Shown here in pieces: positions 2,225 through 4,534 of a stretch of DNA of 4,534 bases. How positions within the stretch are numbered: position 1 is the first letter of the stretch; every line of letters starts with the position of its first letter. The stretch is from a virus (taxonomy: Duplodnaviria; Heunggongvirae; Uroviricota; Caudoviricetes). A program made the translations under genes and the position numbers. The notes beneath the pieces are model-generated. The model saw only the letters and a program-made list of their open reading frames with translations. It ran no database searches and was not told the DNA's origin. The stretch is from IMG/VR virus record IMGVR_UViG_2778261058_000008, positions 1 through 4,534 of that record; one strand, 5' to 3'.

Positions 2225-2910
2225 ATAACCAGTATTTACAGTTTGTTCGTGAGCAGCTCATTATCGCCACCGCCGATTTGAGTGGGGCAACAAAAGGTCA
2301 GCTTGAAGCCTGGCAGGAGAATGCCATGTTCGATACAGGGCGTTACAGGCGTAAAAAAATCCGGTACCGCGATGAAGTGACCGGAAAAATGATCACGCGG
2401 GATAATCCACCAATCCCGGGGAAACAATCGCTGGCGAAGGGGACGTCAATTCCTCTGGTAAGTCAGGTTGAGTTTTCGACATCATCATGGCGACGGGCAG
2501 TTCTGTCTCTTGAAGAACATCATAAAACCTGGTTGTTGTGGTGTTACAGCGGGAGTATTTGCTGGGAGTATCAGGTCACCATAACCCGCTGGGCATGGGA
2601 AGAGTTTAAGGCTCATTCTGGCAACAGGAAAATTGCAGAGAAAACACGGGAGCGCCTGAAAAAATTAATCTGGCTGGCGGCACAGGATGTGAAGAGTGAG
2701 CTAGCTGGGCGTGAAACTTATGAATATCAGGAACTGGCATTACTGGCGGGAGTAACAACAAAAAACTGGTCCAAAACATTTACTGGTCACTGGGTTGCAA
2801 TGAAACACATTTTCCACCGGCTGGATAGTGAGGCTTTATTGTTTGTGATGAGAACACGCTCAGAACAAAAGACGGCATTTTCAAAGCAAAGTGTTGCAAA
2901 AGTAGATTAA
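2221..2910 (+). CDS. Late-gene antiterminator Q-like protein (Q82/Qin-type), 229 aa
   Basis: ATG 2221 overlaps the rusA stop (ATGA at 2221-2224) with GGAG 5 nt upstream; an in-frame GTG at 2215 is an alternative start. Gene lies directly after rusA, and its 3' end overlaps a promoter that is followed about 70 nt later by a terminator, the geometry of Q / PR' / tR'. Family call rests on context and general resemblance, not a search. Confidence 0.6.
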   Translation: MNNQYLQFVREQLIIATADLSGATKGQLEAWQENAMFDTGRYRRKKIRYRDEVTGKMITRDNPPIPGKQSLAKGTSIPLVSQVEFSTSSWRRAVLSLEEHHKTWLLWCYSGSICWEYQVTITRWAWEEFKAHSGNRKIAEKTRERLKKLIWLAAQDVKSELAGRETYEYQELALLAGVTTKNWSKTFTGHWVAMKHIFHRLDSEALLFVMRTRSEQKTAFSKQSVAKVD

Positions 2911-2922
2911 AAGGCATATATT
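2894..2922 (+). promoter_or_regulatory. PR'-like late promoter overlapping the 3' end of the Q-like gene
   Basis: -35 TTGCAA (2894-2899), 17-bp spacer, -10 TATATT (2917-2922); predicted start near 2929-2930. Confidence 0.45.
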
Positions 2923-2928
2923 TCGTGC

Positions 2929-2999
2929 AAATCTGATATTTTGCCGATTTTGTACTCGATGGCAAAGTAAGCAAATCCCGCCGCCGAGCGGGTTTTTTT
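2929..2999 (+). ncRNA. Short terminated late-promoter transcript, about 70 nt (analogous to lambda 6S RNA / StxS)
   Basis: Runs from the predicted PR'-like start to the T-tract of the tR'-like terminator; no ORF with an SD inside. Confidence 0.3.
2977..2999 (+). terminator. tR'-like intrinsic terminator
   Basis: Stem CCCGC (2977-2981) / GCGGG (2988-2992), 6-nt loop, seven T (2993-2999). Confidence 0.75.
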
Positions 3000-3014
3000 G
3001 TTGGCTTAACAGGT

Positions 3015-3540: not shown

Positions 3541-3569
3541 TTGACACACATAGTGTGTTGGCTGATACT
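3541..3569 (+). promoter_or_regulatory. Strong sigma70 promoter candidate with a palindrome in the spacer
   Basis: Consensus -35 TTGACA (3541-3546), 17-bp spacer, -10 GATACT (3564-3569), AT-rich tract upstream (3530-3540). Spacer holds ACACA-TAG-TGTGT (3546-3558), which looks like an operator. Confidence 0.5.
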
Positions 3570-3575
3570 GTCGCT

Positions 3576-3690
3576 GTACCCTGATGGGACTTGTGAGACT
3601 TCCGAACAGGAAGCCAGGAGTAGCGATGAGGTGATGACAAGCCTGCTGCCCCTGTGTAAAAGGCACCTTAATGGTGCCTTTGTCGTTTTT
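3576..3690 (+). ncRNA. Candidate small RNA, about 115 nt (about 148 nt if it reads to the second terminator at 3723)
   Basis: Defined by the promoter at 3541-3569 and the hairpin plus T-tract at 3659-3690. Only trivial ORFs inside: a 2-codon ORF after AGGAG (3616-3620) and a 25-codon frame from ATG 3634 that runs through the terminator stem and has no properly spaced SD. Confidence 0.3.
3659..3690 (+). terminator. Intrinsic terminator candidate
   Basis: Stem AAGGCACC / GGTGCCTT around loop TTAAT, then GTCG and five T (3686-3690). Confidence 0.5.
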
Positions 3691-3700
3691 ATCAAAAGAT

Positions 3701-3723
3701 CCCGCCACTGAGCGGGTTTTTTT
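3701..3723 (+). terminator. Intrinsic terminator; near-identical second copy of the tR'-like terminator
   Basis: Stem CCCGC (3701-3705) / GCGGG (3712-3716), 6-nt loop, seven T (3717-3723). ATCCCGCC...GAGCGGGTTTTTTTGT is shared with 2974-3002; only two loop bases differ. Confidence 0.75.
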
Positions 3724-3845
3724 GTGTCCTAAAAACGGCACAGGACGTTAAACGCGCTGGTGGTTGCGAATACGGGTCTTTCAGCTTGCTGGCTTTTTCG
3801 ACAAGAGTTATTGGTATGTCACGTTAACCAGAAAAGGAAAAAGAC

Positions 3846-4043
3846 ATGCTAAAACAGCAGGATATGACCGAAACTGCCAGAGTAGTGTTTAATGAATTGA
3901 GCGTCACCGAACCGGCGACCGTCGGGGAAATTGCGCAGAACACGTACCTTTCACGCGAACGCTGCCAGTTAATACTGACTCAGCTTGTTATGGCAGGTCT
4001 GGCAGATTATCAGTTCGGTTGTTACAGACGCCTTTCGCAGTGA
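3846..4043 (+). CDS. Small 65-aa protein, probable winged-helix/HTH DNA-binding protein
   Basis: SD AAGGA (3834-3838) 7 nt before ATG 3846. Segment ATVGEIAQNTYLSRERCQLILTQLVMAGL has helix-turn-helix character. Function is inferred, not established. Confidence 0.6.
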   Translation: MLKQQDMTETARVVFNELSVTEPATVGEIAQNTYLSRERCQLILTQLVMAGLADYQFGCYRRLSQ

Positions 4044-4193
4044 AGGTTTTTTTATTTGTGGTAATGGGCGGCTGGTGGGTGTTAGCGGCACCTGCCAGCC
4101 ATCTGCTCATGCGTTGGGGTCACAAGCAAACCTCAGGCCCATCTGCTTTGCGCAAAAGCGGTATGAGCCTATCAGAGAAGTGCTTATTGATCT

Positions 4194-4534
4194 ATGGCTA
4201 ATACTGTAAAAATATCCAGTTGTGAGTTAATCAACGCTGATTGCCTGGAATTTATCCAGACCTTACCGGAAAACTCTGTCGATCTGATAGTCACAGACCC
4301 GCCATACTTTAAAGTGAAGCCCGAGGGCTGGGATAACCAGTGGAAGGGCGACGATGATTACCTGAAATGGCTGGATCAGTGTCTGGCGCAATTCTGGCGG
4401 GTACTGAAACCTGCCGGAAGTCTCTACCTGTTCTGTGGTCATCGCCTGGCATCTGACACCGAAATCATGATGCGTCAGCGCTTTAATGTGCTGAACCACA
4501 TTATCTGGGCGAAGCCGTCCGGACGCTGGAACGG
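4194..4534 (+). CDS. N6-adenine DNA methyltransferase (N6_N4 MTase type), 5' part only; runs off the window
   Basis: Hand translation from ATG 4194 gives MANTVKISSCELINADCLEFIQTLPENSVDLIVTDPPYF... with the catalytic DPPY motif in the SVDLI-x-x-DPPY context seen in beta-class adenine methylases such as E. coli YhdJ. In-frame TGA directly upstream (4188-4190) fixes the start. No stop before the window end, which is why it is missing from the ORF track. Confidence 0.85.
   Translation, partial: MANTVKISSCELINADCLEFIQTLPENSVDLIVTDPPYFKVKPEGWDNQWKGDDDYLKWLDQCLAQFWRVLKPAGSLYLFCGHRLASDTEIMMRQRFNVLNHIIWAKPSGRWN

Follow-up and report, generated by a model that had tools for sequence, protein, structure and literature searches.

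An orphan methylase gene and its leader RNA

The first 4,534 nucleotides of IMG/VR virus record IMGVR_UViG_2778261058_000008 (Caudoviricetes), a stretch that we call the window, break off inside a gene for a beta-class N6-adenine DNA methyltransferase of the M.EcoGII family; its 5′ part, 113 codons on the + strand (4194–4534), is identified by translation, by Pfam and by identity to M.EcoGII. The 131 nucleotides (nt) directly before its start codon (4063–4193, + strand) are, by covariance model and alignment, a conserved, non-coding, structured leader RNA that has no Shine-Dalgarno (SD) sequence. The same strand carries, further upstream, a hok/sok module and genes for a DUF968 protein, RusA and the antiterminator Q. 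The enzyme itself is nothing new, one more allele of a known and characterized family; the only part of the locus with research value is the leader, which is apparently undescribed.

The methylase ATG (4194–4196) is the start annotated in RefSeq relatives. As an earlier, sequence-only reading of this DNA had pointed out, it comes right after an in-frame stop, and the gene is cut by the edge: a TGA two codons ahead (4188–4190, + strand; within a conserved CTGATCT that is followed by the ATG) is separated from it by the single codon TCT, and the frame stays open through 113 codons up to the end of the window. The same reading took the product to be an adenine methyltransferase with a DPPY motif, without specifying the family, and this holds: the 113-residue fragment matches PF01555 (N6_N4_Mtase) with E = 3.4e-16 (60.3 bits; cut-off 26.7; a full-length relative reaches 154.8 bits), and its catalytic motif IV, DPPY (residues 35–38; 4296–4307, + strand), which is invariant in 17 family members, lies near the N terminus, ahead of the target-recognition region. 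Of the 113 residues, 106 (94%) are identical in M.EcoGII, for which we used the sequence given in PMC11551740 (supplement; GenBank EGT69837.1) in a machine-read form with a few errors (for example NHHIW for NHIIW), so that identities to it are lower bounds. The closest full-length relative (L001), 98% identical to the window in nucleotide sequence, has an intact gene of 348 codons with a C-terminal motif I, FMGSGS; its identity to M.EcoGII is 85%, and the two differ mostly in their central and C-terminal portions. The methylase of phage 1720a-02, named as very similar to M.EcoGII by PMC5778455, is 93% identical to it. The family is also common: the DNA at 3700–4534 matches 2166 of 5426 complete E. 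coli genomes (~40%) and 24 phage records, phiP27 and many Stx2 phages among them.

The Dam family is absent among the Pfam and NCBIfam matches of the methylase and, because DPPY is N-terminal, the order FxGxG before DPPY is not found. No restriction endonuclease gene is present in the window, as the sequence-only reading had also said, or within 6–7 kb downstream in relatives, in which tRNA genes followed by stx2e (phiP27), stx2A (1720a-02), or holin and lysin genes directly come next. The Protein Data Bank (PDB) holds no solved structure of M.EcoGII and none of a close relative of the methylase. As far as the visible third of the gene allows, the open reading frame (ORF) at 4194–4534 is thus, by its sequence, the start of an orphan M.EcoGII-family methylase, neither of the Dam type nor part of a restriction-modification system.

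M.EcoGII is widely used, in chromatin footprinting, in MadID and in engineering of N6-methyladenosine (m6A) in RNA, and it is notoriously toxic to clone. The enzyme, from E. coli O104:H4, methylates adenines whatever the surrounding sequence, in RNA as well as in double- and single-stranded DNA; it is prophage-borne, leaves no trace in the lysogen methylome and is silent there, its constitutive expression is deleterious (PMC5778455; toxicity of the family is also reported in PMC12707154), and its discoverers proposed that it shields phage DNA against restriction after induction (PMC5778455). The nearest characterized enzymes have no sequence specificity and leave the lysogen methylome unmarked (PMC5778455, PMC6602927). 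Reconstructed ancestors of the M.EcoGII clade methylate RNA without site preference (PMC11551740); since these are more divergent than the window allele, it is reasonable to infer that the latter, too, methylates adenine non-specifically. Since lysogens do not express M.EcoGII and the enzyme recognizes no motif (PMC5778455), a missing methylation motif in lysogens would not speak against a functional enzyme.

The leader is conserved and tied to the methylase start

How far does the leader extend beyond this prophage? Eighty loci that encode relatives of the methylase (65–87% protein identity) were collected from species-representative genomes of GTDB; they come from Escherichia, Citrobacter, Klebsiella, Salmonella, Enterobacter, Kosakonia, Mixta, Rosenbergiella, Buttiauxella, Yersinia, Lonsdalea, Ewingella, Xenorhabdus and Photorhabdus. 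In most of them, and thus across Enterobacterales, the 131-nt leader, which starts with AATGGGCGGCTGG, aligns end to end. Among 34 diverse sequences its mean pairwise identity is 81%, as compared with 85% at codon positions 1 and 2 of the first 113 methylase codons, 51% at codon position 3, and 58% in the 120 nt further upstream. The leader is non-coding because single-nucleotide indels separate the relatives and their reading frames are inconsistent.

A covariance model built from the 34 sequences matches the window at 4057–4208 with 142 bits. Of the 80 loci, 51 give a match (E = 1e-12 to 1e-40; 52 in all when the window is counted), each locus a single one that runs to ATG+15, and the leader of phage 1720a-02 is matched as well. 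The association holds in the other direction as well: when the DNA of IMG/VR was scanned with a 20-nt core of the leader, ignoring the protein, 120 of 124 core-bearing loci (GTDB and viral together) had a DPPY ORF at the expected distance, and the remaining four were cut or ambiguous.

The sequence-only reading had noted a weak ribosome-binding site with no clear SD. Indeed, the 14 nt before the window ATG (GTGCTTATTGATCT) hold no GGAG-like sequence, and an SD is absent in all 34 aligned long-leader sequences, which read CGCTTACTGATCT before the ATG or close variants of it; therefore, the weak site is a conserved property of the family and not an accident of the window copy.

The leader, in its window and consensus-type forms, gives only chance-level matches in Rfam 15 (E >= 0.1, far below gathering scores), and we found no paper on it or on the regulation of M.EcoGII-type genes. 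Known prophage small RNAs (sRNAs) of enterohemorrhagic and enteropathogenic E. coli do not correspond to it: Pas sRNAs lie beside capsid and tail genes, and AsxR and AgvB are encoded on the opposite strand, beyond the 3′ end of the cargo gene (PMC4104026). Coupling to an upstream ORF was considered and rejected. The candidate, a 12-codon ORF (4163–4201) that ends in ATGGCTAA over the methylase start, has ATG, GTG, TTG, GAG or GGG as its first codon among relatives and no conserved stop, and single-nucleotide indels occur in it; its “ATG” is the helix partner of a CAT (CAC:GTG elsewhere). Longer ORFs across the leader (4019–4201 and 3985–4209) vary among relatives in both frame and end.

Enterobacterial-type methylase loci also occur in assemblies labeled Vagococcus (L019), Chryseobacterium (L029), a Geobacteraceae metagenome-assembled genome (L010) and Collinsella (L050); these labels likely reflect contamination or mis-binning of the records.

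A three-way junction in the leader RNA

RNAalifold and explicit pair counts support a main fold in which three helices meet and a fourth follows (all on the + strand). Helix J, whose 5′ strand TGGGC (4065–4069) pairs with GCCCA (4137–4141), closes the junction; 100% of its alignment cells are paired in 49 sequences, and it has one double compensatory change, in Mixta mediterraneensis. Hairpin P1 (4070–4100; 4070–4081 with 4089–4100) shows compensatory changes in 8 of 12 pairs and is present in the minimum-energy fold of the window. Hairpin P2 (4102–4130; 4102–4107 with 4125–4130) is supported by covariation, with C4103 and A4129 mismatched in the window: its column pair 51:75 reads C-G 25 times, A-U 9 times, U-A 9 times and G-U 5 times and is never broken, and the hairpin is lengthened to 9 perfect base pairs in Yersinia and rebuilt with other bases in one further locus (L030). 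Hairpin P3 (4143–4161; 4143–4149 with 4155–4161) rests on fold prediction and pair counts; its GCTTT:AAAGC is replaced by GCTG:CAGC in two loci (L053, L077).

Across the 49 sequences, 94.4% of the cells of the main fold hold standard pairs, as against no more than 45% when the partners are slid by 1–3 columns; both sides change in compensation in 13 of the 29 pairs, and the observed values were reached by 0 of 500 shuffles. The MAFFT alignment agrees for J, P1 and P2. Wobble is unequal between the two strands: G-U cells outnumber A-C cells 21:8 and 90:10, an excess expected for a + strand RNA and not for a DNA palindrome. Covariation computed for all columns against all was dominated by clade structure and was uninformative save for the P2 pair. 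On the evidence of these alignments, we conclude that the leader folds as a three-way junction (J, P1, P2) followed by hairpin P3, and that its helices covary. Two other pairings, a hairpin ATCAG:CTGAT in the 3′ tail and those of TGAGCC with the P2 loop, are broken by variable positions and were not adopted. A scan finds no intrinsic terminator or attenuator in 4060–4193; P1 is followed by CATCTGCTCATG.

The fold has a reduced form. In Xenorhabdus and Photorhabdus (L051–L082), about 110 nt before the methylase, GAAATGGGCG and hairpin P1 are retained, with many compensatory changes, in a leader that has no middle part (P2, the 3′ strand of J, and P3). Some of these loci have a terminator-like U-run after P1, and in many Xenorhabdus copies ATG GAA TAG stands ahead of a GTG, with the start displaced and an SD-like GGAA created.

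In nearly all long-leader loci a GATC, the Dam site, is found 2–5 nt before the methylase ATG (4188–4192 in the window), and a second GATC arises in the leader where GGTCA has become GATCA; RNA pairing can account for these sites.

A possible second fold at the start codon

The minimum-energy structure of the window differs from the junction fold (z = -2.9). In this alternative, ATGGGC (4064–4069) pairs with GCTCAT (4105–4110) and extends P1; GGC/CAT (4136–4142) pairs with ATG/GCC (4163–4169) and extends P3; and the segment just before the ATG (TGCTT..TGATC; 4181–4192, + strand) takes 4118–4128 (GGTCA.AAGCA) as its partner, which would bury positions -13 to -2 relative to the start. These helices exclude J and P2. 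They are paired in 94.4% of cells, and pairing survives each of the 13 one-sided changes in the P1 extension; they covary less than the junction, with 5 compensatory pairs and a covariation score that 15 of 500 shuffles matched. By nearest-neighbor energies the alternative is more stable in 25 of 34 sequences (by 2.5 kcal/mol on average), and in Yersinia the junction fold is favored by 18 kcal/mol. Taken together, the energies and pair counts are suggestive of a leader that is bistable.

If there is no SD, what could the ribosome recognize? The sole complementarity near the start to the 3′ tail of 16S rRNA is, we assume, that of UGAUC to GAUCA of 16S. In the alternative fold this UGAUC is paired with GGUCA or GAUCA of the leader. 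One may speculate that the covering helix mimics the rRNA tail.

The repeated 9-mer

The sequence-only reading had reported two copies of CCATCTGCT ahead of the methylase, at 4101–4109 and 4139–4147 and 38 bp apart, and had suggested that they could be regulatory sites. Both copies exist, and the second was placed correctly; the first lies at 4099–4107, and the gap is 31 nt (40 nt start to start). The proposed role fares worse. Each copy spans a boundary between RNA helices: the first (+ strand) consists of the last two bases of P1, the junction AT and the 5′ strand of P2, and the second (+ strand) of the last three bases of J and the 5′ strand of P3. Two copies of this particular 9-mer appeared in 0 of 200 shuffles; the window, however, contains three cases of an exact 9-mer repeated within 60 nt, and at least one such case turns up in 48% of shuffled windows, so that such a repeat is unremarkable by itself. 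Nor is it conserved: most relatives have CCATTCGCT and CCCACCGCT in place of the two copies (CCCACTGCT or CCCACCGCT for the second), the CAT...ATG of outer P3 in the window is CAC...GTG elsewhere, and a 1-nt indel in the 9-mer region separates even close relatives, as in E. albertii, which has lost one nucleotide of copy 2. Judged by these comparisons, the CCATCTGCT repeat is a by-product of two similar helices and not a pair of binding sites.

The late operon and the neighboring genes

The methylase lies downstream of the antiterminator gene Q and on the same strand, which bears out its earlier assignment to the late operon. Q itself (2221–2910, + strand; Pfam Phage_antiter_Q, E = 2e-92) is overlapped at its end by a late-promoter-like site found by promoter scan (2894–2922), and a terminator scan places a first, strong terminator after it (2977–3000). 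By sequence, the three are arranged like a lambdoid late promoter and the first terminator behind it. Between the late promoter and the methylase the scan finds two further hairpins in tandem that resemble intrinsic terminators (3659–3690 and 3701–3725, + strand), and a weak CCTT/AAGG hairpin with a run of seven Ts, terminator-like and below the scan threshold, stands after the ORF upstream of the leader (4031–4053, + strand); at the corresponding site, relatives have a stronger, covarying hairpin and a T-run. A promoter scan finds no sigma-70-like promoter in 4044–4193. This series of terminators and the lack of a promoter-like site near the methylase fit the published silence of such genes in lysogens.

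The ORF upstream of the leader (3846–4043, + strand) encodes a 65-residue minimal winged-helix protein (phrog_331, function unknown; PHROGs E = 1e-37; AlphaFold2 pLDDT 92). The AlphaFold2 model is similar to DNA-binding domains of the regulators MarR, OhrR and IclR and also to the winged-helix dimerization domains of O-methyltransferases (Foldseek E ~2e-3 in either case). In 59 of 82 loci a homolog lies ~340 nt ahead of the methylase start; the genera range from Escherichia to Xenorhabdus and Photorhabdus, and identity is 38–98% overall and 38–50% in the latter two; sequence comparison thus points to a real association of the two genes. Unrelated genes replace it in about a quarter of all loci. 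Among the 51 long-leader loci, 18 carry unrelated genes in its place, so the stable unit is leader plus methylase, and an obligatory partnership of the winged-helix protein with the leader was rejected on the same ground, a third of the leader-bearing loci having other genes upstream. The protein may be a regulator of the methylase, a reader of m6A in DNA, or something unrelated.

Other features of the window stand apart from the methylase. A complete hok/sok type I toxin-antitoxin module occupies 37–362 (Rfam sok, 121.7 bits, 37–212), with a hokD-like ORF of 51 codons (207–362) and an overlapping mok-like frame from 150. A PemK/MazF-like toxin ORF (3104/3143–3505; Pfam E = 6e-14; phrog_15698), beside which no antitoxin gene is visible, lies between the late terminator and the methylase module. 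At 3541–3725, a near-consensus promoter-like site (TTGACA-17-GATACT, 10/12) is followed ~90 nt later by the tandem hairpins described above; the arrangement resembles an sRNA gene of 100–150 nt and matches no Rfam family and no tRNA. From the late-promoter-like site and strong terminator at 2894–3000 a short leader transcript of ~70 nt would be expected; the segment has a weak, sub-threshold similarity (19.5 bits, E = 0.5) to Salmonella IsrK, which we take to come from the equivalent position of a Gifsy prophage.

How might the methylase be controlled?

We think it likely that this is an orphan, non-specific methylase of the M.EcoGII family carried as cargo of the late operon, silent in the lysogen and preceded by a conserved cis-acting leader RNA that may set or gate its translation. 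The gene would belong to the late operon of a lambdoid E. coli prophage, under antitermination by Q. It would be silent in the lysogen: it has no promoter of its own, four terminator-like hairpins between it and the late promoter, and no SD. After induction, Q-modified RNA polymerase would read through the terminators. The enzyme would then methylate adenines of progeny DNA in any context and blunt restriction by Type I, II and III systems of the next host, as has been proposed for the family. The leader, through its junction fold and an alternative that pairs the 12 nt before the ATG, may limit translation of a toxic product or gate it; leaky transcripts of the lysogen would in that case give no enzyme, and late transcripts driven by Q would.

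Several observations weigh against parts of this account, and most bear on translational control. The helix that covers the start is paired in 90.8% of cells and shows almost no covariation; the predicted probability that the start region is unpaired is 0.36, versus 0.45 in shuffled leaders, lower in 30 of 34 sequences and not significant in any one of them. Pair counts for the main fold are inflated, the sequences being closely related and the covariance-model alignment (A4) fitted to part of the structure, and the shuffles were not phylogeny-aware. The shorter leader of Xenorhabdus and Photorhabdus and the few relatives that are leaderless (L024, L036) imply that the long leader is not indispensable for the enzyme. 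The window covers about a third of the methylase gene, which limits what can be said of its intactness in this genome.

If the leader is not a translational regulator, what else could preserve it? It may be a structured spacer in the late transcript, that is, a processing site for RNase III or RNase E or a stabilizing hairpin. P1 on J, or P1 with its extension, would give a duplex of ~17–19 bp, the size of an RNase III substrate, and the evidence for occlusion of the start site is weak; yet conservation runs through the single-stranded 3′ tail up to the ATG, and an SD is missing from 34 of 34 sequences, neither of which processing alone need require, and we hold a mere spacer to be unlikely. 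Rather less probable still is that the conserved 131 nt act as DNA, whether as an operator or palindrome, as a module boundary kept by recombination, or as an unrecognized promoter. The very high conservation, which includes the unpaired segments AATGGGCGG, GTCACAAGC and TGAGCCTA, would suit such a role, and the inverted repeats P1 and P3 could be symmetric operators; the strand-asymmetric wobble, with G-U far in excess of A-C, the covariation of long-range J and P2, which are not simple palindromes, the lack of a sigma-70-like promoter, and the fixed register to the start codon all argue for RNA instead.

The two remaining proposals concern transcription and the enzyme, and both seem to us highly improbable. 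According to one, the CCATCTGCT copies are direct-repeat sites through which a DNA-binding regulator, for example the adjacent winged-helix protein, controls methylase transcription. The repeat does exist, and the winged-helix gene, immediately upstream, often travels with the methylase; but an unconserved, chance-level repeat, interrupted by a deletion in E. albertii and with no promoter-like site nearby, makes a poor operator, its variable bases covary as RNA helices with partners 20–25 nt (copy 1) and 12–18 nt (copy 2) downstream, and the winged-helix gene is missing from 18 of the 51 leader-bearing loci. The other, which we would credit least and which takes up the epigenetic role raised by the sequence-only reading, has the methylase expressed in the lysogen, where it would regulate host or prophage genes by site-specific epigenetic marks. 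There are orphan methylases of prophages that act so; the nearest characterized enzymes, however, are non-specific and leave no trace in lysogen methylomes (PMC5778455, PMC6602927), constitutive expression is deleterious, and the gene itself has terminator-like hairpins upstream and a start without SD.

The preferred account, in which the leader of a late cargo methylase may gate its translation, can be taken a step further. The leader could be a new class of cis-regulatory RNA switch for M.EcoGII-type methylases, with the junction as sensor and the alternative fold shutting the start, a proposal that we make tentatively and consider doubtful as it stands. Candidate effectors are S-adenosylmethionine or S-adenosylhomocysteine, the winged-helix protein, the speed of Q-modified polymerase, and the methylase itself, the last because it binds and methylates single-stranded RNA. 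If true, such a switch would ensure that an enzyme able to methylate adenines genome-wide is made only at the proper time and in the proper amount. We found nothing in the literature that addresses how phages keep M.EcoGII harmless until lysis. A conserved, covarying RNA at the methylase start codon, present from Escherichia to Yersinia, is a testable candidate for this control, and should it respond to a ligand or to the enzyme, it would represent a new class of regulatory RNA in very well studied bacteria.

Relation to known systems

The closest parallel to the enzyme is M.EcoGII, and with it M.EcoGI, of E. coli O104:H4 C227-11 (Murray et al. 2018, PMC5778455), which like the window methylase have beta-class motif order, an N-terminal DPPY, a prophage location and no cognate nuclease. 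The closest M.EcoGII relatives, such as that of phage 1720a-02, share the leader of the window, and the visible part of the window allele differs from M.EcoGII by six or seven substitutions. The Type II methylases M.RsrI, M.MboII and M.PvuII belong to the same fold family, share its motifs and are the best PDB sequence matches (E = 1e-24 to 1e-7); these, however, have a cognate nuclease and a defined site, whereas the window enzyme has no neighboring nuclease and, judging by its family, presumably no site.

In gene order the nearest counterparts are phiP27 and those Stx2 phages that carry the methylase between Q and stx: Q, the small winged-helix ORF and the methylase follow one another as in the window, and tRNAs, in some cases stx, and the lysis genes come next. 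The phiP27 region with L24, a “putative DNA methylase,” is 94.8% identical to the window in nucleotide sequence over the small ORF, the leader and the methylase start. The window prophage differs from these phages in having the PemK/MazF-like gene between Q and the module, and its nearest relative has tRNA-Thr and tRNA-Gly downstream and no stx.

Two phage systems resemble the proposed control in its logic. In lambda cIII, two mutually exclusive mRNA folds set the opening of the start site, and binding of RNase III shifts the switch. The leader, as we read it, would likewise serve a lambdoid gene through mutually exclusive mRNA folds, the second of which is weakly supported here; cIII is another gene with another RNA, and it shares neither sequence nor structure with the leader. 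In the com-mom operon of Mu, Com is a zinc-finger RNA-binding protein. Like the window locus as we read it, com-mom combines a toxic gene for DNA modification, expressed late and not in the lysogen, with a small protein gene just upstream, and mRNA structure around the start of the toxic gene may hold its translation back. The small protein of the window, unlike Com, is a winged helix and is missing from 18 of the 51 leader-bearing loci, and the com-mom RNA has no similarity in sequence or structure to the leader. Mom and M.EcoGII have been compared before (PMC12707154).

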